DNA from: a phage
Strand: one strand, 5' to 3'
Sequence record: PZ496581.1
Length of the DNA stretch: 64,000 nt
The translations under genes were made by a program, and so were the position numbers. The notes beneath the pieces are model-generated. The model was not told the DNA's origin and ran no database searches. It was given only the letters and a program-made list of their open reading frames with translations. Below, in pieces: positions 2,096 through 60,602 of the stretch. Positions within the stretch are counted from its first letter, which is position 1; the number at the start of each line of letters is the position of its first letter.

Positions 2096-2136
2096 TTTAT
2101 TCTCCAGATGTTTAAGTTGTTTGTTGGTACAGGTCT

Positions 2137-2165
2137 ATAATAACATAACCTGTACCAAAGTAAAC
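2137..2165 (-). promoter_or_regulatory. T4-type early promoter (-35 GTTTAC, 17-nt spacer, -10 TATTAT)
   Basis: Read on minus strand; -10 lies inside the inverted repeat ggtacaggt/acctgtacc (2126..2156); ~40 nt upstream of the ATG at 2095. Confidence 0.4.
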
Positions 2166-3143: not shown

Positions 3144-3392
3144 TTATTTAAGGGTAATAACAAAATGACGTACTGCTTTACGAGCTGCAGAAGCCAAAGG
3201 CTTAGCATATTTCAGTTCATCTTTTGCTTCCAGTTCAGAGGCCAAAGCTGCCTGTACCGGGTTCAGATGTTTGAAATAATGCAGGATTTCCAGTGCTTCG
3301 GCTTCAACATCAATCGACGCGCCGTAGTTTTCGTGACCGTTATTCCATGCGTTTCGTTGCAGTTCAAGAGCGTGTTGTAATTGTTTAATCAT
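3144..3392 (-). CDS. rIII: rIII lysis-inhibition accessory protein (82 aa)
   Basis: Length and sequence recalled as T4 rIII-like; sits beside gene 31 as in T4. Confidence 0.75.
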   Translation of the reverse strand: MIKQLQHALELQRNAWNNGHENYGASIDVEAEALEILHYFKHLNPVQAALASELEAKDELKYAKPLASAARKAVRHFVITLK

Positions 3393-6135: not shown

Positions 6136-6164
6136 TTCGATTTCCTCATTGTGTTGGTAGAGTC

Positions 6165-6194
6165 ATAGTATCACAACTCTACCATGTTGTAAAC
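6165..6194 (-). promoter_or_regulatory. T4-type early promoter (-35 GTTTAC, 18 nt, -10 TACTAT) inside an inverted repeat
   Basis: -10 lies in the loop of ggtagagt/actctacc (6156..6183). Confidence 0.4.
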
Positions 6195-9696: not shown

Positions 9697-9726
9697 ATAG
9701 TAACACCATCCTTGGTGTTTGTAAAC
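9697..9726 (-). promoter_or_regulatory. T4-type early promoter (-35 GTTTAC, 18 nt, -10 TACTAT)
   Basis: Palindrome caccatccttggtg lies in the spacer; -35 overlaps the stop of gene 63. Confidence 0.4.
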
Positions 9727-10862: not shown

Positions 10863-10902
10863 TCAGTTAGTTTTTTAAATTGTACCACAATCCTTGTGGT
10901 GT

Positions 10903-10934: not shown

Positions 10935-11318
10935 AGGCGGGTTGAACTTTTTGATAAAAAGCGGTTCTTCAAGGTCCATTGTTGCGATGGTCATTGAACC
11001 AAGTTCGTTGGTGACTGAAAGGTCAAAACATTGGCGGGCCCAGAATTCAACCTTTTTGCCTTGCATTAAGGCATCCAAAATCATAAGTGATTTTCTTGAA
11101 TCTGAAGTCTGGTCTTTTCGATTTATGGCTGTTCGATAATAGTTAATGCGTTTCTTTAAATTCTTGGTTTTACCAATATACACAAGTTCGTCATCTATAG
11201 CAATAGCGTATATGACATTTTTCTTATTAGGGACATCAACTGTTTTAATTGTTGCATCTTCTAATAGCTCCAATTCTGTATATTTAATAAAGGAATATTC
11301 GGCGGCAATATCTTTCAT
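10908..11318 (-). CDS. denA: Endonuclease II (GIY-YIG-like), 136 aa
   Basis: VIYAIAIDDELVYIGKTKNLKKRINYYR GIY-YIG-like core; same length and position (beside nrdB) as T4 DenA. Confidence 0.8.
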   Translation of the reverse strand: MKDIAAEYSFIKYTELELLEDATIKTVDVPNKKNVIYAIAIDDELVYIGKTKNLKKRINYYRTAINRKDQTSDSRKSLMILDALMQGKKVEFWARQCFDLSVTNELGSMTIATMDLEEPLFIKKFNPPWNIQHKKK

Positions 11319-11326
11319 AATAAAGT

Positions 11327-11340
11327 GGGACCGAAGTCCC
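11327..11340 (-). terminator. UUCG-tetraloop hairpin
   Basis: ggga-ccgaag-tccc between the nrdB stop and the denA start. Confidence 0.35.
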
Positions 11341-11344
11341 GTCC

Positions 11345-12523
11345 TTAGAAATATTTTTTGTATGAATTGATTACATTTTGGTCTACATCATTATCAATTT
11401 GTGCGACAAGATAAGAACTGATTTCAACTTCCTGAGGAGCTGCTTGAACTAAATCAGAGTTCAGATATTCACGAATCCAAGGATACGGATGCTTGGTCGG
11501 AGCATCAGTGATTGGGCATGGCAAACCACACTGTTTCATACGAGACACAGTCAAGTAATCAACAAAAGCACACATACTCTGTGTATTGATACCTGGGCAT
11601 GTACCGTCTTTAAAGAGGTGTGCAGCCCATTCCTTCTCTTGACTATTTACTTCCATAAAAATGTCAACTGCTTCTTGTTCACATTCTTTAGCAATTTGAA
11701 CCCACTCATCGCCATCAGTACCAGATTGAAGTTGACGGATGATGTACTGAGTACCCTTGAGGTGGAGTTGTTCGTCACGAGCAATGAACTTCATAATCTT
11801 TGCATTACCTTCCATAATTTCCATATTTTTATGGAAGTTGAAAGTACATGCAAATGATACGTAAAAACGAATAGCTTCTAAGGCGTTGATAACATGCAAA
11901 CAGAGGTAAAGAGATTTCATTAGCTCACGCTTCCAATATGTCTCATGCTCAATAGCATCTTCAATAACGTCTTCGTCTGCATTAATTTCTTTTTGGTATT
12001 CGATATCAGCTTTAGCATTTTCCCAATAACGAGTTTTAACCAAGACATCATCGTAATAGCGACCAATAGATTCAGCGCGTTTCATGATTGCTTCGTCTAA
12101 TACAATCTCATCAAATACCTTAGATGGGTCCGTATAAAGATTTCGCATAATATGAGTATACGAACGAGAGTGAATAGTTTCACTGAATGTCCATGTTGCA
12201 ACCCACGTATCTAATGAAGGGTCAGAAATCAGTGCCATAAGTACCGCAGATGGGGCCCTGCCTTGGATAGAATCTAATAATGATTGATACTTAAGATTGT
12301 TTGTAAAGATGTCCTGTTGGAACTGAGGAAGCTTATTGAACTGCGCAGAGTCCAACATCAAGTTTACCTCTTCGGGACGCCAGAAAAATGACAAGGATTT
12401 TTCTATAAGTTCTTCAAAAACTTTATGACGCTGAATATCATACCGTGCGAGGCCAAGACAAGAACCAAAGAACATCGGTTCATTCAAAACATCGACTTGT
12501 TGTGTGTTAAAAACTGTACTCAT
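11345..12523 (-). CDS. nrdB: Ribonucleotide reductase small subunit (392 aa), intronless
   Basis: Continuous ORF of full NrdB length, adjacent to nrdA; no intron-sized gap. Confidence 0.85.
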   Translation of the reverse strand: MSTVFNTQQVDVLNEPMFFGSCLGLARYDIQRHKVFEELIEKSLSFFWRPEEVNLMLDSAQFNKLPQFQQDIFTNNLKYQSLLDSIQGRAPSAVLMALISDPSLDTWVATWTFSETIHSRSYTHIMRNLYTDPSKVFDEIVLDEAIMKRAESIGRYYDDVLVKTRYWENAKADIEYQKEINADEDVIEDAIEHETYWKRELMKSLYLCLHVINALEAIRFYVSFACTFNFHKNMEIMEGNAKIMKFIARDEQLHLKGTQYIIRQLQSGTDGDEWVQIAKECEQEAVDIFMEVNSQEKEWAAHLFKDGTCPGINTQSMCAFVDYLTVSRMKQCGLPCPITDAPTKHPYPWIREYLNSDLVQAAPQEVEISSYLVAQIDNDVDQNVINSYKKYF

Positions 12524-15488: not shown

Positions 15489-16504
15489 CATTATGTTCAG
15501 ATAAGGTCGTTAATCTTATCCCGGAATTATATCCAGCTGCATGTCACCATGCAGAGCAGACTATATCTCCAACTTGTTAAAGCAAGTTGTCTATCGTTTC
15601 GAGTCACTTGACCCTACTCCCTAAAGGGATAGTCGTTAGGCATTTATGTAGAACCAATTCCACTTATCAGATTTTACACGGTAAGTAACTAATCCTGATG
15701 AAATTTCAAAATGTCTAGCCGCATCGGCTGCACATTCAAAAATAATCCCATCGCATGAAATCTTTTTGATGTTAGCTGGCTTTTTGCCTTTCATCTTTTC
15801 AGATAGTTTAGTTTTAGTTTTTTCTGAATGTTTGTGATTAAAGAACGGGTTATTTTCACCTGAACGTTTTCGGCACTTTCCACAAGTATCGGCCGAAGAT
15901 GGTATGCGAACACCGCATTTACAAAACTTGTGGTTTTCTGGATTCCATCGGCCATTTTTACTTCCGTGTTTACCATAAAGAGCTTTCCGACCATCAGGAC
16001 CAAGCTTAAGCATCTTAGCTTTAACAGTTTCAGCTCGTTTCTTAGCAATTTCTTCTTTTAATGGATGATTTGAAAGCACATCGCCAAAAGACGCATCAGC
16101 AATATTATATCCATTAATTTTAGAATTTAGCTCTTTAATCCAAAAATTTTCTCGTTCAATAATCAAATCTTTCTCATATGGAATTTCTTCCAGTACAGAG
16201 CATTCAAAAACATTACCATGTTTATTAAAAGACCTTTGAAATTTTATAGAAGAGTGAACACCGTTTTCAAGGTCTTTAAAATGTCTCTTCCATCTTTTCT
16301 CAAAATCTTTAGCACTTCCAACATACACTTTACCGTTTAAAGTGTTTTTAATCTGATAAATTCCGCTTTTCATAAACACCTCTTTTTATATAGAAGTATT
16401 TATTAAAGGGTAGTCCTACAATTTAGCACGGGATTGTCTACTAGAGAGGTCCCCCGTTTAGATAGATTACAAGTATAAGTCACCTTATACCTAGGCCTAA
16501 ATTA
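15489..16504 (-). mobile_element. Group I self-splicing intron in td (1016 nt) carrying a homing-endonuclease ORF
   Basis: Intron 5' end UAAUUUAGGCCUAGGUAUAAGGUGACUUAUACUUGUAAUCUAUCUAAACGGGG closely matches the remembered T4 td intron; exon 1 ends GGU; length matches T4. Confidence 0.8.
15636..16373 (-). CDS. GIY-YIG homing endonuclease I-TevI (245 aa)
   Basis: MKSGIYQIKNTLNGKVYVGSAKDFEKRWKRH... plus C-terminal zinc finger CKCG...CGKC; near-identical to remembered I-TevI. Confidence 0.9.
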   Translation of the reverse strand: MKSGIYQIKNTLNGKVYVGSAKDFEKRWKRHFKDLENGVHSSIKFQRSFNKHGNVFECSVLEEIPYEKDLIIERENFWIKELNSKINGYNIADASFGDVLSNHPLKEEIAKKRAETVKAKMLKLGPDGRKALYGKHGSKNGRWNPENHKFCKCGVRIPSSADTCGKCRKRSGENNPFFNHKHSEKTKTKLSEKMKGKKPANIKKISCDGIIFECAADAARHFEISSGLVTYRVKSDKWNWFYINA

Positions 16505-17880: not shown

Positions 17881-18144
17881 TTATTTCCTCAGATTTTTCT
17901 TAACAACTTTCCAATCAGCTTTAAACGATTCAACATCAGAGTGGTGAATCCAGAATCCTGCACTTTCACCATCTTCGTAGAGTGGACATCCATCACATTC
18001 TTCGTTCCAACCCATTTCACGTAAAGCTTCTTCAGCTTGTTCAAGGAGTTCAGCATCTTTACCAACGATGTTGAAGTACCATTTACCTCTAACTTCAGAA
18101 TCTTTGATGCTCTGGCGTTGCAATCTCATTTTATTCTCCTTCAC
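17881..18144 (-). CDS. Hypothetical protein (87 aa)
   Basis: Track ORF. Confidence 0.45.
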   Translation of the reverse strand: MKENKMRLQRQSIKDSEVRGKWYFNIVGKDAELLEQAEEALREMGWNEECDGCPLYEDGESAGFWIHHSDVESFKADWKVVKKNLRK

Positions 18145-18151
18145 TTTTATT

Positions 18152-18191
18152 TGATAGGGCTACTATAACATAGCCCTATCTTGTTATAAAC
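18152..18191 (-). promoter_or_regulatory. Early promoter module (-35 GTTTAT, -10 TATAGT) with 9-bp inverted repeat gatagggct/agccctatc
   Basis: -10 lies in the hairpin loop; upstream of the ATG at 18144. Confidence 0.4.
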
Positions 18192-19751: not shown

Positions 19752-20405
19752 TTAATACTTACATGATTTGATTGTTTCTATGAACAATTTCTTAGCAGCA
19801 TTTCCATCGATTTGAAGTATTTTTCGATATGCCTTTAATTTGGTAGAATAATTTTGCCAGACTAAATTATCGGTGAGTTCGTCGTGCTTATCTATAATAT
19901 TCAAAAACGAGTCCAACAATAAGAAAGTTTCAAATGAAATTATATTGCTTTGTAGCAATTTAAATATGTAGCTCGACTGAACGTTGTTATTATAATCAAA
20001 TATCTCTTGAAGCGCACTAACTTCAACTTTCTTACTGAAATAGTAGATGTTACGTACGTCTTCAGCAAACGTCTCTTTAGCTTGTTTTAGTCGTCCAATA
20101 TATTCCCTATAGAAAACTAATGCATCAGCGTCTGATATCTCACCAATCCATGCGTCTTGGTTAGCAACTAAGTTGCTTATGAATATCAAGGTGAGTTCCT
20201 TCAATTTATATTTCTCTGATAGTTTTTCAAAGAAATATTTATCTCGGCGTTTTTGATACGCATTATCCGAAACACGCATGCACCAGTTATATTTGATTAC
20301 GTCATACCGACCACCAAAGTGGTTTTTGCACATCAAGTATAGTTTATATACTGATTTACCGTTAATATAACGTTCTCCGTCAGGAGGCATACGTATTTTA
20401 ATCAT
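19752..20405 (-). CDS. 59: gp59 helicase loader (217 aa)
   Basis: MIKIRMPPDGERYINGKSVYKLYLM...KYNWCMRVSD...QSSYIFKLLQSNIISFETF near-identical to remembered T4 gp59. Confidence 0.9.
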   Translation of the reverse strand: MIKIRMPPDGERYINGKSVYKLYLMCKNHFGGRYDVIKYNWCMRVSDNAYQKRRDKYFFEKLSEKYKLKELTLIFISNLVANQDAWIGEISDADALVFYREYIGRLKQAKETFAEDVRNIYYFSKKVEVSALQEIFDYNNNVQSSYIFKLLQSNIISFETFLLLDSFLNIIDKHDELTDNLVWQNYSTKLKAYRKILQIDGNAAKKLFIETIKSCKY

Positions 20406-34940: not shown

Positions 34941-34969
34941 ATAATATCATGTTTGAAGCAAAAGTAAAC
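34941..34969 (-). promoter_or_regulatory. T4-type early promoter for motA (-35 GTTTAC, 17 nt, -10 TATTAT)
   Basis: Near-identical copy of the module at 35263..35291. Confidence 0.45.
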
Positions 34970-35262: not shown

Positions 35263-35291
35263 ATAATATCATGTTTGAAGCACATGTAAAC
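35263..35291 (-). promoter_or_regulatory. T4-type early promoter (-35 GTTTAC, 17 nt, -10 TATTAT), duplicate of the motA promoter
   Basis: The ~35-nt core ttgataggtctataatatcatgtttgaagca recurs 320 bp away. Confidence 0.45.
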
Positions 35292-37801: not shown

Positions 37802-38051
37802 TTTGTGTTCCTCATATTTTGATAGGACTACTATACCATAATCCTACCTTGATGTAAACAATTAAATTACATTAAAATATGTTAAAGCCAACCATGTTCC
37901 AGTGAACGAACATGCGATGTAAAAACCCGTATCACAAATTGTTCTTAGTACAATAAGAAGTGCATTTTTCATAAGTACCTCAATGCAATTGAAAATATTA
38001 TACAAATCATAGGGATACTAAGCAACCATATTCCGATCCACATTTTAGAGC

Positions 38052-38315: not shown

Positions 38316-38341
38316 GATGTTATCCTCTTTTAGATAGGACT

Positions 38342-38371
38342 ACTATATCATAGTCCTACTTAGTTGTAAAC
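38342..38371 (-). promoter_or_regulatory. T4-type early promoter (-35 GTTTAC, 18 nt, -10 TATAGT) inside an inverted repeat
   Basis: Inverted repeat taggacta/tagtccta flanks the -10. Confidence 0.4.
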
Positions 38372-46747: not shown

Positions 46748-47001
46748 TAAGTTGTACCGTTTTCAGTGATTTCACGGAAGATACCATAGATAGGCATTTC
46801 ATCGCCGAGTTTTTCGTAAACGTAAACCACTTCAGTGTAGCATAAAAATTCGGTCCAGTTTTTCTGTACAACAACTAAATCAGGATTAAACAGAACATCT
46901 TCAAACTCATCGATGTTTGAATCAGTAGTTACGTTTTTAATGATTTGACGTTTCATAATATTCTCCTCTTGTTTTGATAGGTCTATAGTATCATAGACCA
47001 T
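46729..47001 (-). CDS. Hypothetical protein (90 aa)
   Basis: Track ORF; promoter module ~46976..47010 upstream. Confidence 0.45.
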
Positions 47002-47013
47002 AGTTGTTGTACA

Positions 47014-47538
47014 TCATTTTAGCAAAATAAAATCAACTTGTTCTGCCAATGAACGTCTGAACATTGATTGACAACTTCCGAGTATGAAATCAGGTGCTTC
47101 ATAGACCGCGATGTAGTATCCTTTAGCTTTCAAGAGTTCAACATCCACCTGGTCATCAAACCATGCATAAACCGCGTCAACACTTTCAAATCCAAAATAG
47201 AACCCTTGAGCCCAATCTTCACTCAATTCAAATGTGTGCTCAATTCTATAGTATCTTAAGATATTTTGTTCAAGGAGTTTGTCTTCATTTACTGTAGGAC
47301 GATTAGGGACGTTATAGTTGTCGCCGTGATGGTAGAAATTACCTGAGATTATTCCATGTTTATCAAGGAACTCCCATGTTTCTTCAGAGTTGTCGGTGCC
47401 CGACCAACCGTATGGTGAGCGAGGTTCTTTATTCCAAGAGGTTTCCCAAATTCTGACGGCTTTACCGTCTTCGATAGCAATTCCTGGTAATGATTCACGT
47501 TGAGTACAAAAACTACGTTCTACGCGGTAAACTAACAT
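47014..47538 (-). CDS. Hypothetical protein (174 aa)
   Basis: Track ORF; its ribosome-binding site lies in the 3' arm of the promoter-embedded inverted repeat. Confidence 0.5.
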   Translation of the reverse strand: MLVYRVERSFCTQRESLPGIAIEDGKAVRIWETSWNKEPRSPYGWSGTDNSEETWEFLDKHGIISGNFYHHGDNYNVPNRPTVNEDKLLEQNILRYYRIEHTFELSEDWAQGFYFGFESVDAVYAWFDDQVDVELLKAKGYYIAVYEAPDFILGSCQSMFRRSLAEQVDFILLK

Positions 47539-47564
47539 ATTATTCTCCTCTGGTTGATATGGTT

Positions 47565-47593
47565 ATAATACCAAAACCAGAGGAGAAGTAAAC
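47565..47593 (-). promoter_or_regulatory. T4-type early promoter (-35 GTTTAC, 17 nt, -10 TATTAT) nested in a 9-bp inverted repeat that pairs with the downstream Shine-Dalgarno
   Basis: 5' arm CUCCUCUGG lies in the -35/-10 spacer; 3' arm CCAGAGGAG (47545..47553) contains the GAGGAG ribosome-binding site of 47014..47538. Confidence 0.45.
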
Positions 47594-48491: not shown

Positions 48492-48557
48492 ATTTTTTTC
48501 TCTCTTTGTTTAAGATAGATTCATTATACTCCAACCATCCTTGGTTGTAAACTGGTT

Positions 48558-50868: not shown

Positions 50869-51615
50869 TTAACCTTTAATCAGTTGGAATAATGATGCGC
50901 TAAGTGGTAAGCCACGTTTCAATTTTAATTTACCAATGAAACCAATCTTTTCAAAACGTTGCAGACCTTGGATAACTTTATCATATGTATCGAAAAGCGA
51001 TTCAGCGTCAGTTAATTTAGTTTTAGTTTTCCAGTCAGAGCCTTTAAGAAGAACGTTGAGTTTAGTAAGTTCATGGCCTTCTGCTTGATGTGAGCCATTA
51101 ATGCGTGCTTTCAAAGCAACAATTCTAAGTTTAGATTCGTTAGATAAAGGTTGATTTTTCATCATGTTCGCCATATGCTTAACACGATTTTCACGTTTTG
51201 CTCGGATTTTTAAAATAGTGTCATAAACCTTTTTAATTTGGGCCCATTTCTTCTCGTCGAGATTAAGTTTCTCTACTTTACGGGCAGAAGGATTAGCGAT
51301 ACGTCTTGCAATGGCATCACGTTTCCTAATAAGTTCTTCTAATGTTAAATCAGAACGAGCCGTGTTATATTTTTTCTTAACTGGGATAACATTACCTTTA
51401 ATGTAGCCTATATCATTATTAAAACGTTCTAAGGATAATTTCTCACCTTCAACAGAGTTATTAAAAGATTCACCTGAGTAAGCGCAGACCTTTTGATCAA
51501 GAATGTTTTTAAGGTAATTAAAGTCTAAGTTAAAATCCTTAGAGCGTCTCTTCGCAGAAGCTCTGGTGTGGTCAAGACGTCGATTGATTTTGTTAATTTT
51601 ATTATTTGATAACAT
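50869..51615 (-). CDS. Basic protein with degenerate HNH-like segment (248 aa); positional candidate for Srd
   Basis: VCAYSGESF...LSLERFNNDIGYIKGNVIPV resembles an HNH core without the usual Cys/His ligands; lies between dda and the Mod paralogues. Confidence 0.4.
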   Translation of the reverse strand: MLSNNKINKINRRLDHTRASAKRRSKDFNLDFNYLKNILDQKVCAYSGESFNNSVEGEKLSLERFNNDIGYIKGNVIPVKKKYNTARSDLTLEELIRKRDAIARRIANPSARKVEKLNLDEKKWAQIKKVYDTILKIRAKRENRVKHMANMMKNQPLSNESKLRIVALKARINGSHQAEGHELTKLNVLLKGSDWKTKTKLTDAESLFDTYDKVIQGLQRFEKIGFIGKLKLKRGLPLSASLFQLIKG

Positions 51616-51768
51616 AATATTTTCCTCTGTCTTACGGACGTTAAGGTCATTTAGCTGATAAGCTTATAATATCATGCCCTCAGGTAGTGTACACTCTTTT
51701 TTCATAAAATGCTTTAATTTTTTATGTGTTATAATGGTTCTGAGTTCCATCCGGTTATTCCAATTCAG

Positions 51769-52434: not shown

Positions 52435-53016
52435 CTAAAAATTCAACATTTTCAAATGAATGATTTTGTATAATCGAGATAAAGGGTCATATTCTAAGTC
52501 TTCAATTTCCACAATCTCAAATCGAGAGATACCTGAGACCATGTACTCTTGTTCAGATTCAATCATATCTAGGACATCGATACGAGTTTCTTCCATAACA
52601 TGCTTAGGGTTCTTTCCGGCGAGTACAATGTTAACCATGTTTTGGTAGTAATCAAAAATGAATGGAGCATTCCTGAGACTAAGAATAGTGTACGTCTGAT
52701 ATTCCCATCTCCCGGAGAATTGACGAGCTGTACTGAAATCAGTTGTGAACGATGTTACTCGTCCAGGAGACCAATGGCATCCAACAGAAAGAAGGGAAAG
52801 ACGTTCTACTTCTTCTGGAGTTACACCACGGTAGAGTTCTACTGGTACTGTAGAAGTCATATGCTTACGAACAAGATGGTCTAATTCATAGTGGAAATCC
52901 GGGTCTTCCTTAGAATCGGTGCAAGCCCAGAGAATGTTTTGTTCTTGGCGGGTGAATTTGCTATCAATCAGATTTGTTAGGTATTCACGTTCTTGAAGTT
53001 CAGATTGACATGTCAT
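52435..53016 (-). CDS. Mod-family ADP-ribosyltransferase-like protein (193 aa)
   Basis: R-S-E style motifs: LYRGV, FTTDFSTARQF, ESEQEY; tandem paralogue of 51769..52377. Confidence 0.6.
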   Translation of the reverse strand: MTCQSELQEREYLTNLIDSKFTRQEQNILWACTDSKEDPDFHYELDHLVRKHMTSTVPVELYRGVTPEEVERLSLLSVGCHWSPGRVTSFTTDFSTARQFSGRWEYQTYTILSLRNAPFIFDYYQNMVNIVLAGKNPKHVMEETRIDVLDMIESEQEYMVSGISRFEIVEIEDLEYDPLSRLYKIIHLKMLNF

Positions 53017-53232
53017 GATAGACCTCCATTTAAAGATAAGCCTATCATAACACGAGAGGAGGGAATGTAAACTACTTTTTAAGCTTTCCTACTAAAGGTC
53101 CATCAGGACCAGGTTGTTCTAACATGAATAAGGATGCTTTAAAAAGCAATGTCAACCCTTTCACCATTCGATACCATGTCTCAAAGTCTTTTTCCTTGAT
53201 TTCTAGTAAGAATTTCTCTTTAAATTTCTCTT

Positions 53233-58584: not shown

Positions 58585-58647
58585 TTTAACTCCTTAGTTG
58601 ATTTGATAGGACTACTATACTATAGTCCATCTATAATGTAAACAAGT

Positions 58648-59644: not shown

Positions 59645-59792
59645 ATGCTTTAACTAATGCTTTGTTCACTTCAGCAAGTTGTACCGTAACCCACTCGATT
59701 TCTTCGCGATCACCTGATAACATGATATCTTTAGTGAACATCTCACCGCTTTTAAACCAACCGATAAAAGTAACTTTAGTTAATTTGCTCAT
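59601..59792 (-). CDS. dmd: Dmd antitoxin (inhibitor of RnlA/LsoA RNases), ~63 aa
   Basis: KVTFIGWFKSGEMFTKDIM...AEVNKALVKAFVNDEKVFEADFRG matches remembered T4 Dmd; start moved to MSKLTKV. Confidence 0.75.
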   Translation of the reverse strand: MSKLTKVTFIGWFKSGEMFTKDIMLSGDREEIEWVTVQLAEVNKALVKAFVNDEKVFEADFRG

Positions 59793-60106
59793 ATTTCCTC
59801 GCAAAATGCCCATTCAGCGTGATAAACTGTAGCACCTTTAGTATTATTCATTTGAACTACGTCTACCGGAGAAATTACTCGATAGAGACGTGGTTCACCT
59901 CCATAAGAGCGTGCTGCTCGTCCTGCATAAATCTTTGCTAAACCGATATCTTCAGTAAAGAATACACGATCCAAGTTTTTCTTACGTCCAGTTTCAGACA
60001 GAACTCCTGTTTCCTCAGGAGGACAAAGCATGTTTTCGATGTTAGCTGAACTACTTGAACCGTGATAAAAAATCTTAAATTCTGCTTTACAATCGATGGT
60101 TTTCAT
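59789..60106 (-). CDS. Hypothetical protein (105 aa) with H-G-S motif
   Basis: Track ORF; contains FYHGSSS; between gene 41 and dmd. Confidence 0.45.
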   Translation of the reverse strand: MKTIDCKAEFKIFYHGSSSSANIENMLCPPEETGVLSETGRKKNLDRVFFTEDIGLAKIYAGRAARSYGGEPRLYRVISPVDVVQMNNTKGATVYHAEWAFCEEI

Positions 60107-60132
60107 TTTGTTCTCCAGTAGTTGATAGGACT

Positions 60133-60161
60133 ATAATAACACAACTACTGGAGAAGTAAAC
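60133..60161 (-). promoter_or_regulatory. T4-type early promoter (-35 GTTTAC, 17 nt, -10 TATTAT) nested in a 12-bp inverted repeat that pairs with the downstream Shine-Dalgarno
   Basis: Arms at 60142..60153 (in the spacer) and 60113..60124 (contains the GGAG of 59789..60106). Confidence 0.45.
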
Positions 60162-60536: not shown

Positions 60537-60602
60537 AATGTTTTCCTCTTGGTTGGTGTAAGTACATCATATCATGCCTAGAGGAAGATGTAAACCCCGA
60601 AA

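Follow-up and report, generated by a model that had tools for sequence, protein, structure and literature searches.

The 64,000-nt stretch of DNA that we analysed (PZ496581.1; the window) comes from a Mosigvirus, an RB69-like T-even phage, and carries 25-26 T4-type early promoter modules, every one of them on the minus strand. A pattern scan of the window for GTTTAC-N17/18-TATNNT gave 12 matches, all on the minus strand, against an expectation of 0.67. A relaxed scan yielded 25 intergenic modules, each with a Shine-Dalgarno sequence (SD) and an ATG downstream; an additional module, with the -35 ATGTAC, lies upstream of cef. The layout is an A-rich UP element, GTTTAC, 17-18 nt, TGn (found ahead of the -10 in 22 of the 25), TAnnnT and then AGACCTATCAA, the consensus 3′ of the -10 hexamer in the 25 modules. 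The sequence-only reading that preceded this work had described more than twenty minus-strand intergenic modules of shared architecture with a conserved CCTATCAA-like element after the -10, and our scans bear out both points, that element matching the consensus.

The co-oriented genes downstream are early-gene orthologues, for example motB.2, modB, sp and motA, and by their sequence we identify the cassettes as sigma-70 early promoters of T4 type, placed in the ~60-nt gaps that separate early genes. They have the UP/-35 GTTTAC/TGn/-10 architecture in common with the early promoters of T4 and RB69 (Hinton, 2010, PMC2988021; Nolan et al., 2006, PMC1524935), and the C-rich -3 to -1 region reported for RB69 corresponds to the CC of CCTATC in the window modules. 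The RB69 Pe predictions of Nolan et al. include equivalents of window promoters. Transcription starts and immediate-early activity of the modules are predicted from the T4/RB69 consensus, with each start placed by the T4/RB69 rule at the seventh nucleotide past the -10. The T4 and RB69 promoter papers deal with promoters only and do not treat hairpins; the terms hairpin, stem, palindrome and dyad were all absent when the text of Nolan et al. (PMC1524935) was searched.

Three promoters with hairpins over the translation start

At three of the modules, all with counterparts among the RB69 Pe promoters (PMC1524935), an inverted repeat connects the promoter to the translation start of the next gene:

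47588..47593, minus strand: -35 GTTTAC; early promoter of motB.2, RB69 counterpart Pe:7443
47575..47587, minus strand: 5′ arm TTCTCCTCTGGTT, an anti-SD inside the 17-nt spacer, contained only in read-through RNA
47565..47570, minus strand: -10 TATTAT with TGn ahead, in the apical part of the motB.2 hairpin; predicted start A at 47558
47543..47555, minus strand: 3′ arm AACCAGAGGAGAA, which contains the SD (GGAG 47548..47545); ATG 47538..47536
47014..47538, minus strand: motB.2 homologue, 174 aa, the gene behind the hairpin
60156..60161, minus strand: -35 GTTTAC of the RB69ORF040c-homologue promoter, equivalent to RB69 Pe:20537
60142..60155, minus strand: 5′ arm TTCTCCAGTAGTTG within the spacer of that promoter
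60133..60138, minus strand: -10 TATTAT of that promoter; predicted start A at 60126
60111..60124, minus strand: 3′ arm CAACTACTGGAGAA with the SD inside; ATG 60106..60104
59789..60106, minus strand: RB69ORF040c homologue, 105 aa
53072..53067 (-35) and 53049..53044 (-10 TATGAT), minus strand: modB promoter, equivalent to RB69 Pe:13466; predicted start ~53037
53039..53054, minus strand: 5′ arm CGTGTTATGATAGGCT of the modB switch, spanning the spacer end, -10 and discriminator
53009..53024, minus strand: 3′ arm GGTCTATCATGACATG of the modB switch, spanning the 3′ end of the SD and the start codon ATG 53016..53014
52435..53016, minus strand: ModB homologue, an ADP-ribosyltransferase

At the motB.2 site the two arms are perfectly complementary over 13 bp, and at the RB69ORF040c-homologue site perfect 14-bp arms link the spacer to the SD. 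The arrangement that had been claimed for these two sites, with the 5′ arm between -35 and -10 and the SD in the 3′ arm, is thus what lies there; the third occluding module, at modB (ATG 53016), was absent from the sequence-only reading. The 174-aa motB.2 homologue has no Pfam match. The 5′ arm is upstream of the module's own start in all three, either in the spacer (47593, 60161) or across the -10 and discriminator (53072), and because of this geometry, given the predicted starts, own-promoter transcripts should lack it.

On read-through RNA, the switch stems (13-16 bp) are predicted to hold the SD and/or the AUG inside the helix. The folds at 47593 (-25.5 kcal/mol, z -5.0) and 60161 (-24.7 kcal/mol, z -6.0) were matched in energy by 0 of 200 dinucleotide shuffles, and the own-promoter leaders of the three switches are without structure (z -0.1, +0.5 and +0.8). 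An index of the probability that the SD pairs anywhere 5′ of the start site was dropped as saturated (at least 0.5 in 120 of 219 modules), since weak pairings prevail in RNAs that are short and isolated, and differences in opening energy with cross-copy controls were used in its place. As a thermodynamic prediction, opening of the translation start (TIR) becomes costlier between own-promoter and read-through RNA, going from 1.7 to 20.0 kcal/mol for ATG 47538, from 3.4 to 18.1 for ATG 60106 and from 5.3 to 18.2 for ATG 53016. For the first two sites this agrees, at the level of prediction, with the earlier proposal that read-through hides the ribosome-binding site (RBS) and that the promoter's own transcript leaves it open. 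For the remaining 22 modules the opening cost is 0.8-8.4 kcal/mol, inside the range of the cross-copy controls. Modules that occlude the SD or AUG therefore number 3 of 25 in the window (4 of 44 over the whole RB69 genome), too few for RBS sequestration to be called systematic, as it had been; the other repeats leave the SD unpaired. Among 96 predicted gene starts scanned, stems of at least 12 bp cover the TIR at four only: the three early-promoter switches and the I-TevI homologue (ATG 16373), the textbook example, which serves as a positive control.

The inverted repeats of the other modules are real as well. Of the 25 modules, 12 have a perfect stem of at least 6 bp whose 5′ arm lies in the spacer (shuffles 3.35 +/- 1.66) and 6 have one of at least 8 bp (shuffles 0.26), so that the repeats stand but their presence in "most" copies was too strong a claim for what is about half. 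The three examples quoted in support of it were located at 6184/6155, 18180/18153 and 38363/38327. In the non-switch repeats the spacer pairs either with the -10/start-site region (class A) or within itself (class C), and these repeats stop 19-28 nt 5′ of the ATG with the SD unpaired. The individual cases are as follows:

18153..18180, minus strand: class A hairpin GATAGGGCTAT/GTAGCCCTATC, spacer with the -10 end and start-site region; excludes the SD, 23 nt from the ATG at 18129
6155..6184, minus strand: class A hairpin TGGTAGAGT.../...ACTCTACCA, enclosing the -10 TACTAT
2124..2158, minus strand: class A hairpin TTGGTACAGGT/ACCTGTACCAA, enclosing the -10 TATTAT
38327..38363, minus strand: class A hairpin TAGGACTAT/ATAGTCCTA
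37821..37848, minus strand: class A hairpin GGTAGGATTAT/GTAGTCCTATC, with G-U pairs among its pairs
58605..58631, minus strand: class A hairpin GGACTAT/GTAGTCC of the sp (spackle) promoter
48532..48547, minus strand: class C hairpin CAACCA-AGGA-TGGTTG, spacer-internal; similar ones at 9702..9719 and 10884..10900
60543..60586, minus strand: weak spacer-SD pairing TTCCTCT/AGAGGAA at the ORF041c-homologue promoter

The last of these has a canonical terminator upstream, and its opening cost shows only a small rise, 2.6 to 7.2 kcal/mol. Orthologues of the sp promoter in other lineages have different stems in the same position. Whether class A hairpins keep the RBS more open than in cross-copy controls gave mixed ranks, and we make no claim of it.

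Conservation and compensatory change

Each spacer pairs with its own leader better than with those of other copies (-10.4 versus -7.1 kcal/mol; permutation p < 5e-5), and pairing of -12 kcal/mol or stronger is found in 29% of 80 non-redundant modules as against 6% of cross-copy pairs. The motB.2 hairpin is kept in Mosigvirus, JS98-like phages and T4 (where it has 17 bp, 3 of them G-U pairs, and z -6.5), the modB hairpin in five lineages, and the regB hairpin, which lies outside the window, in at least four lineages, T4 included. For these three genes, whatever the lineage, the SD or AUG lies under the 3′ arm, and the remainder of the arm has diverged. The early promoters of motB.2, modB and regB in T4 itself thus carry hairpins of this kind too, and in this respect the phage does not differ from T4. 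A 44RR-like phage has an unrelated spacer-SD hairpin. The extended hairpin at 60161 is specific to Mosigvirus, with only 5-6 bp in other lineages. The motB.2 orthologues were obtained with the T4-like protein and from GenBank records; searching IMG/VR with the MotB.2 protein of Mosigvirus returned three near-identical loci only.

In a table anchored on the SD, the SD core is invariant and each position beyond it shows 2-4 pair types. A covariance-model alignment, seeded with the ungapped alignment of the paralogues, comprised 21 distinct modules; it was fitted to the model structure and is biased towards it, and in it 90.2% of the cells are paired (shuffles 76.2 +/- 1.4; slid controls 46-64%) and 12 of 14 pairs have changed on both sides (shuffles 5.6 +/- 1.3), with 0 of 500 shuffles equalling the observed value on any measure. 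MAFFT alignments of the orthologous cassettes (A1, A2 and A3) were unused for pair counts since their paired columns are out of register across lineages. Within lineages, G-U-compatible changes outnumber A-C changes by 10 to 5 in helices of at least 10 bp, a weak excess, and by 7 to 1 with the cut at 11 bp, still only a weak trend; the census over all predicted helices of at least 7 bp (20 versus 16) was uninformative.

The earlier statement that pairing is kept while the copies differ thus extends across genera, where orthologous promoters pair with different sequences, and arm complementarity is far better than in the controls, whether judged by cross-copy swaps, shuffles or the structural-alignment count. 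With the hairpin kept by different compensating arms in T4, in JS98-like phages and in other lineages, the three switches look to be under selection.

A proposed translational gate and its alternatives

We think it reasonably probable that the three cassettes are gates that tie translation to their own early promoter, and that the rest are stem-loops of the promoter-early stem-loop (PeSL) type. A polymerase arriving from an upstream promoter would transcribe both arms, and the RBS of the read-through RNA would be locked into a 13-16 bp helix as it emerged, leaving the gene untranslated. A polymerase starting at the cassette promoter would instead make an RNA whose 5′ end falls between the arms, with an open and very short leader, and since this RNA would lack the 5′ arm, protein output would be tied to the gene's own early promoter. 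The gated gene would be insulated from upstream transcription and from later (delayed-early or middle) transcription. What the analysis itself shows is the sequences, their geometry, the predicted energies and conservation through compensatory change; the start sites, the translational repression itself and its biological purpose are the steps that we infer. The SD-free stem-loops would most likely act on read-through RNA as an attenuator, a 3′-end protector or a structural insulator, and would stand in for the canonical upstream terminator of other cassettes.

Translational control by a promoter within a hairpin is known in T4 (e, soc, 49, I-TevI/II/III and segB) and for mobE of Aeh1 (PMC3014915, PMC2988022). 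In these late switches long transcripts hold the SD and/or AUG in a stable helix, as predicted here, and the transcript of the nested promoter has no 5′ strand and is translated, the same geometry as in the window, where the I-TevI homologue (ATG 16373) carries exactly the T4-type hairpin. In all documented cases the gene is late and its promoter a gp55-type late promoter (TATAAATA), which is stated as their common feature (PMC2988022), whereas the nested promoters of the window switches are of the early, sigma-70 type and the genes gated in this way are immediate-early (motB.2, modB, regB, ORF040c). A gate of the early type would restrict expression to the earliest transcripts; the T4 late gate postpones it. 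Relative to the two reviews, in which switches of this kind are listed for late genes only (PMC3014915, PMC2988022), the early-promoter version is a new variant, of which earlier mention elsewhere is possible. The T4 precedents alluded to in the sequence-only reading all have late promoters (PMC2988022, PMC3014915). Upstream early promoters fire simultaneously with the nested one, and because of this the temporal logic is less clean than for the T4 late genes.

The generic combination of promoter and stem-loop is already published as PeSL (Arbiol et al., 2010, PMC2839356; Comeau et al., 2014, PMC4122927), a literature that the sequence-only reading did not mention. A PeSL cassette is defined by a stem-loop at an early promoter, in an intergenic region that ends in SD and ATG, and this is what the window contains. 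The correspondence covers the strong sigma-70-type early promoter with its A-rich upstream region, the stem-loop between or over the -35 and -10 boxes, the stop codon at the upstream end with SD and ATG at the other, and the numerous copies among small early genes; the published link to gene gain and loss may have its counterpart in the TH58 case described below. PeSLs have been described for RB49/phi1, PST/T4 and nt-1/KVP40, and RB69-type phages are not among them; RB49 PeSL stems are G/C tracts, whereas the window stems are of mixed sequence. The five published subclasses have the stem upstream of the -35, over the -35, between the boxes, over the -10 or immediately ahead of the start site, and unlike the three window switches none extends to the SD or AUG. 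The words "ribosome" and "translation" are absent from the text of the 2010 paper (PMC2839356).

It is conceivable, if unlikely, that all the stem-loops, the three SD-covering ones included, are PeSL attenuators, terminators or 3′-end protectors that also provide homology for cassette shuffling, with the cover of the RBS incidental. An RB49 PeSL stem-loop cut lacZ read-through about as strongly as rrnB T1 (PMC2839356), and the hairpins embedded in window promoters occur only in cassettes without a canonical upstream terminator (0 of 6, versus 11-12 of the 19 others; hypergeometric p ~0.01-0.02). Most repeats (classes A and C) are clear of the SD. Recombination at PeSLs also predicts events like that in TH58, a single case in which the 5′ part of the motB.2 promoter is fused to the cef leader at a junction inside the cassette and motB.2 is absent, and the three Mosigvirus spacer-SD cassettes are paralogues with 88% identity. 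Against this, the 3′ arm at motB.2, modB and regB lies over the SD or AUG in all lineages, a cover for which a plain 3′ hairpin has no need. Intrinsic terminator identity of the SD-covering hairpins is ruled out on anatomy: their loops are 12-19 nt long with no U-tract behind any switch stem, and a terminator scan of the window, with no T-run after the stems, left the hairpins at 47593, 60161 and 53072 unflagged. No Rfam 15 family matches anywhere in the 64-kb window at or above gathering score. Attenuation and translational gating are compatible and not mutually exclusive.

A quite improbable alternative is that the SD-covering hairpins mainly protect the GGAG of polycistronic RNA against RegB (or RNase E), so that long transcripts survive to express downstream genes and the promoter-proximal copies alone are cut. 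RegB control, which includes autoregulation of regB, targets the GGAG/GGAU SDs of motB.2, modB and regB (PMC3014915, PMC1702504). RegB is inhibited by secondary structure, the SD of T4 motB.2 is cut in vivo and T4 modB RNA is structured (PMC1702504); the sequence after the SD at 47548..47545, AAUAAUA, agrees with an A-rich RegB context, and the regB gene has the hairpin itself. Shielding of GGAG sits less well with the modB-type hairpin, in which the AUG is buried as well, and with the leader at 60106, where a C interrupts the A-rich tract. Shielding and translational gating predict alike in the present data, and shielding is best taken as an added consequence. RegB is a nuclease acting in trans and the hairpin a cis element; the hairpin is undescribed as part of the RegB circuit in PMC3014915 and PMC1702504, and earlier mention elsewhere in the T4/RegB literature is possible. 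RegB cuts some structured sites in vivo on nascent RNA (PMC1702504), and co-transcriptional events may thus weaken the hairpin block.

We consider it very improbable that the repeats act as DNA, as cruciforms or pre-melted promoters that tune promoter strength. The -10 hexamer is at the centre of the repeats and the Mosigvirus arms are perfectly Watson-Crick paired, but the T4 and JS98-type stems have 2-4 G-U pairs each, which are A-C mismatches on the opposite strand, and G-U pairs are commoner in sense folds (145 of 986) than in antisense folds (79 of 776). Loops of 12-19 nt are unfavourable to cruciform extrusion, and arms that differ from copy to copy are unfit for a common binding protein. 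We give as little credence to the repeats being non-functional leftovers of replication template-switching or inter-cassette recombination, since in spite of heavy recombination in T-even phages and the paralogy of the cassettes, pairing is kept across genera through compensatory changes, the hairpins are consistent in geometry, and hairpins and upstream terminators are mutually exclusive.

Returning to the translational gate, RegB cutting of the exposed GGAG, added to the gate, would limit output to a short immediate-early pulse. Over-expression of ModB is lethal and synthesis of RegB is described as tightly controlled (PMC3014915). More tentatively, with rather less than even confidence, we suggest that T4, RB69, JS98 and the T-even phages between them have in common an undescribed class of cis-acting translational gates at early promoters, through which potent enzymes of host takeover, among them the RegB RNase, the ModB ADP-ribosyltransferase and MotB.2, would be translated solely from RNA started at their own promoter; as part of this same tentative suggestion, RegB cleavage of the exposed SD would sharpen expression into a self-limiting pulse, and the SD-free sister hairpins would be complementary insulators.

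The claim is directly testable in T4, whose regB, modB and motB.2 have the same structure. The arrangement also offers an annotation rule for recognising gated genes and, for work on phages and in synthetic biology, a short element of ~60 nt that would make expression depend on the promoter from which an RNA originates. If the claim is true, at least some PeSL-type stem-loops would be translational devices and not only terminators or recombination sites. If the gate works, it would be a third layer timing the first minutes of T-even infection, beside promoter shut-off and RegB cleavage, and would explain how toxic early enzymes are made in a brief burst despite continued transcription from upstream and middle promoters.

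Early promoter modules and their repeat geometries

The stretch is 96-98% identical to genomes of Mosigvirus, the RB69-like T-even phages (top match, Escherichia phage AV116), with the classical early region on its minus strand (frd/32, motA, rII, 39, cef, motB, dexA, dda, modA/B, 56, 61, sp, dmd, 41/uvsX) and tail-fibre genes on its plus strand. A strict early promoter pattern occurs 12 times (0.67 expected), in all 12 cases on the minus strand, and a relaxed scan yielded 25 intergenic modules, every one with a Shine-Dalgarno sequence (SD) and an ATG downstream. Together with a 26th module upstream of cef, which the GTTTAC pattern misses, this bears out the sequence-only reading, which had counted more than twenty. 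The plus-strand image of the cef module, at 46980..46999, was caught by the terminator scan.

In the module consensus an A-rich upstream region is followed by GTTTAC, TGn (22/25), TA(T/C)(T/A)AT and then AGACCTATCAA; the "CCTATCAA-like element" earlier described after the -10 is therefore real, and the predicted start site falls within it. The spacers of two near-duplicate promoters (35291..35263 and 34969..34941, minus strand), one of them upstream of motA, contain TGCTTCAAAC, a sequence similar to the core (TGCTT) of the MotA box in middle promoters, so the two may be early/middle hybrids.

Perfect stems of at least 6 bp are found in 12/25 modules (3.35 ± 1.66 in shuffles) and stems of at least 8 bp in 6/25 (0.26 in shuffles). 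The repeats take three geometries.

Repeat geometries among the promoter modules (modules named by -35 start)
Class A, 58643, 38371, 37859, 18191, 8320, 6194 and 2165, minus: spacer pairs with the -10 end and start-site region
46957..47012, minus: module upstream of cef; -35 ATGTAC, -10 TACTAT, class A stem GGTCTAT/ATAGACC
Class B: 3′ arm is the ribosome-binding site; 17-nt spacer, 5′ arm directly after the -35
Class C, 48552, 9726 and 10908, minus: small hairpin confined to the spacer

Class A stems end 19-28 nt from the ATG and leave the SD unpaired; their sequence changes while their position is kept, as three lineages show at the sp promoter. Across the window, RB69 and related loci, spacer length goes with hairpin type: 17 nt for SD-pairing modules, whose spacers start with a pyrimidine-rich anti-SD (TTCTCC, TCCTC), and almost always 18 nt for the -10-straddling class A. 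When every spacer was paired with the leaders of all modules, own-copy duplexes averaged -10.4 kcal/mol versus -7.1 for cross-copy ones (permutation p < 5e-5). In a non-redundant set of 80 modules, which adds related loci to those of the window, 29% reached -12 kcal/mol or lower versus 6% of cross-copy pairs; this copy-specific complementarity stems from a subset of the modules, not all.

Hairpins over ribosome-binding sites

The two sites that had been singled out have exactly the sequence and layout claimed.

Sites with hairpins over the SD or start codon
47593..47543, minus: motB.2; GTTTAC, 17-nt spacer opening with TTCTCCTCTGGTT, TATTAT; leader has the perfect complement AACCAGAGGAGAA
60161..60111, minus: RB69ORF040c homologue; arms TTCTCCAGTAGTTG and CAACTACTGGAGAA; ATG at 60106
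15636..16373, minus: gene for an I-TevI homologue, 245 aa, with GIY-YIG, I-TevI zinc-finger and DNA-binding domains; hairpin at 16373..16410
RB69 11303..11362 and T4 3237..3298, minus: regB early promoter in an SD-sequestering hairpin, 14-15 bp

At motB.2, AACCAGAGGAGAA includes the SD, 4 nt ahead of ATG 47538. Leaders on read-through RNA are predicted to fold at -25.5 (47593 site) and -24.7 kcal/mol (60161 site), with z of -5.0 and -6.0 and none of 200 shuffles equal. When 96 predicted gene starts were screened without bias, the translation initiation region lay under a stem of at least 12 bp in only four: ATG 60106, 47538, 53016 and 16373. The third, the modB homologue, had been overlooked by the sequence-only reading; here the -10 (TATGAT) and discriminator pair with the SD 3′ end and AUG. 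The fourth, the I-TevI homologue, is the classical T4 textbook arrangement and served as our positive control: SD and AUG lie inside a 12-bp hairpin (ATAAATACTTCT/AGAGGTGTTTAT, -19.2 kcal/mol, z -5.0), with late-promoter-like TATAAATA-type sequences on the 5′ arm and loop.

The computed energy to open positions -14 to +4 rises from 1.7 kcal/mol on promoter-initiated RNA to 20.0 on read-through RNA for ATG 47538, from 3.4 to 18.1 for ATG 60106 and from 5.3 to 18.2 for ATG 53016. For the other 22 modules, opening on read-through RNA takes 0.8-8.4 kcal/mol, indistinguishable from cross-copy controls. In the complete RB69 genome the rise is at least 13 kcal/mol in 4/44 modules (motB.2, regB, ORF040c and modB) and 6-9 kcal/mol in about five more, including denV, mobD.2a and motA. 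Because so few modules raise the cost steeply (3/25 in the window, 4/44 in RB69), sequestration of the ribosome-binding site is a recurrent minority design; the earlier proposal holds for three cassettes but fails as a generalisation, and "systematic" does not describe it.

At the srd homologue (51694..51607, minus; ATG 51615), a 46-nt loop separates the -10 region GCATGATATT from AATATTATGT at the start codon, with which it can pair; the opening cost shifts modestly (5.7 to 8.4 kcal/mol). Either chance or a weak form of the modB-type design may explain this.

Conservation and compensatory change

Orthologues of motB.2 retain the spacer-to-SD hairpin though the arms differ by lineage: TTCTCCTCTGGTT/AACCAGAGGAGAA in Mosigvirus, TTCTCCTCATG/CATGAGGAGAA in JS98-like phages and, in T4 and T4-like phages, TCCTCGGT(T)AGTTGTGGT/ACCATAGCTACTGAGGA (17 bp, three G-U, -27 kcal/mol, z -6.5 to -7.3). 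In modB orthologues from five lineages the -10/discriminator always pairs with GGAGG..AUG, and the pairs in between differ in a compensating way. At regB, which lies outside the window, Mosigvirus, T4 and two more lineages have a spacer-to-SD hairpin of 12-15 bp, with four distinct distal stems. A 44RR-like phage has an unrelated spacer-SD hairpin (-22.8 kcal/mol). In a table anchored on the SD, its core is invariant and each position beyond shows 2-4 pair types. The long stem at 60161 is Mosigvirus-specific; related lineages retain a 5-6 bp anti-SD in two compensatory variants, and several have a canonical upstream terminator instead. RegB is the nuclease that cleaves such SDs, and at least four T-even lineages have an SD-sequestering hairpin at its own promoter.

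The three Mosigvirus spacer-SD cassettes are paralogues that align without gaps at 88% identity and differ by compensatory doublets (TC..GA versus AG..CT, A..T versus G..C). A covariance model built from this alignment recovered 21 distinct sense-strand modules. As the sequence-only reading would have it, arm complementarity there exceeds shuffled controls: 90.2% of cells pair (76.2 ± 1.4% in shuffles, 46-64% with slid partners). Both sides change in 12/14 pairs (5.6 ± 1.3 in shuffles), and 0/500 shuffles attained the observed value on any measure. Having been fitted to the structure, the alignment is biased in its favour, but slid controls fall short by a large margin.

In Escherichia virus TH58 (20108..20169, compared with window 47593..46954), motB.2 is absent and the 5′ part of its promoter (GTTTAC TTCTCCTCT) is fused to cef and its leader; in the fusion, 9 bp still form between TTCTCCTCT and AGAGGAGAA. 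The arrangement resembles a deletion between two cassettes, as has been proposed for promoter-early stem-loop (PeSL) cassettes.

A probable translational gate and its attenuator rival

What we observe is the arms themselves, how they are placed relative to -35, -10, SD and AUG, how stable they are predicted to be, and their conservation with compensatory change. These hairpins rather probably gate translation, so that the gated genes depend on their own early promoter. Transcription would start at the A seven nt past the -10 (the T4/RB69 rule), giving an open leader of about 20 nt. Read-through RNA would arise from the next upstream early promoter, since this is 0.4-1.5 kb away across a terminator-free interval, and on it the helix would form while the SD emerges, blocking 30S binding. 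The 5′ arms start 6-16 nt beyond the upstream stop codon, which we judge out of the terminating ribosome's reach; translational coupling should therefore not open them. The genes motB.2, ORF040c and modB, and regB outside the window, would likely owe their output solely to their own promoters, and it would stop once these shut off and the exposed SDs have been cleaved by RegB; on long RNAs the gated cistron would likely be untranslated and shielded from RegB.

The chief alternative is that the hairpins serve first of all as attenuators or 3′-end protectors and cover the SD incidentally, a role compatible with gating. PeSL cassettes were read by their authors as a terminator or attenuator stem within a recombination site (Arbiol et al., 2010, PMC2839356; Comeau et al., 2014, PMC4122927). 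In our terminator scan the three hairpins did not look like intrinsic terminators, since their loops are long and they have no T-run, and an Rfam search of the window gave no match. T4 and JS98-type stems contain G-U pairs, which on the opposite strand would be A-C mismatches; over all modules, G-U pairs make up 145/986 in sense folds and 79/776 in antisense folds, and a polymorphism census gave a weak trend. Canonical UUCG-type terminators lie just upstream of six modules.

Near-identical UUCG-tetraloop terminators
20-60 nt upstream of promoters 2609, 18641, 35291, 54552 and 60595, minus: GGGAGACTTCGGTCTCCC TTTTG, AAGGAATCCTTCGGGATTCCTT TTTTTTT

None of the six has a strong embedded hairpin, compared with 11-12 of the 19 others (p about 0.01-0.02), which points to two alternative means of handling read-through RNA, the embedded hairpin and the terminator.

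The generic module, a T4 early promoter or PeSL, is already known. The five PeSL subclasses are defined by stem position; in none does the stem reach the SD, and translation is undiscussed (PMC2839356, PMC4122927). The three corresponding RB69 promoters (Pe:7443, Pe:13466, Pe:20537) are among the predictions of Nolan et al. (2006, PMC1524935), who mention no structure. In T4, the motB.2 SD is cut by RegB in vivo, structure blocks RegB and modB RNA was noted as structured (PMC1702504). A 2010 review on post-transcriptional control in T4, long on regB regulation, mentions no hairpin at regB, modB or motB.2 (PMC3014915); older literature might mention such hairpins. Promoters inside such hairpins have precedents at T4 e, soc, 49, I-TevI/II/III and segB and at Aeh1 mobE, all late genes with late promoters according to reviews (PMC3014915, PMC2988022), whereas in our three cassettes the nested promoter is early. 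A gate on translation nested in an early promoter, as conserved across phages from T4 to RB69, looks like a hitherto undescribed form of a device already known in T4; it is of moderate interest, with T4 as an easy test system.
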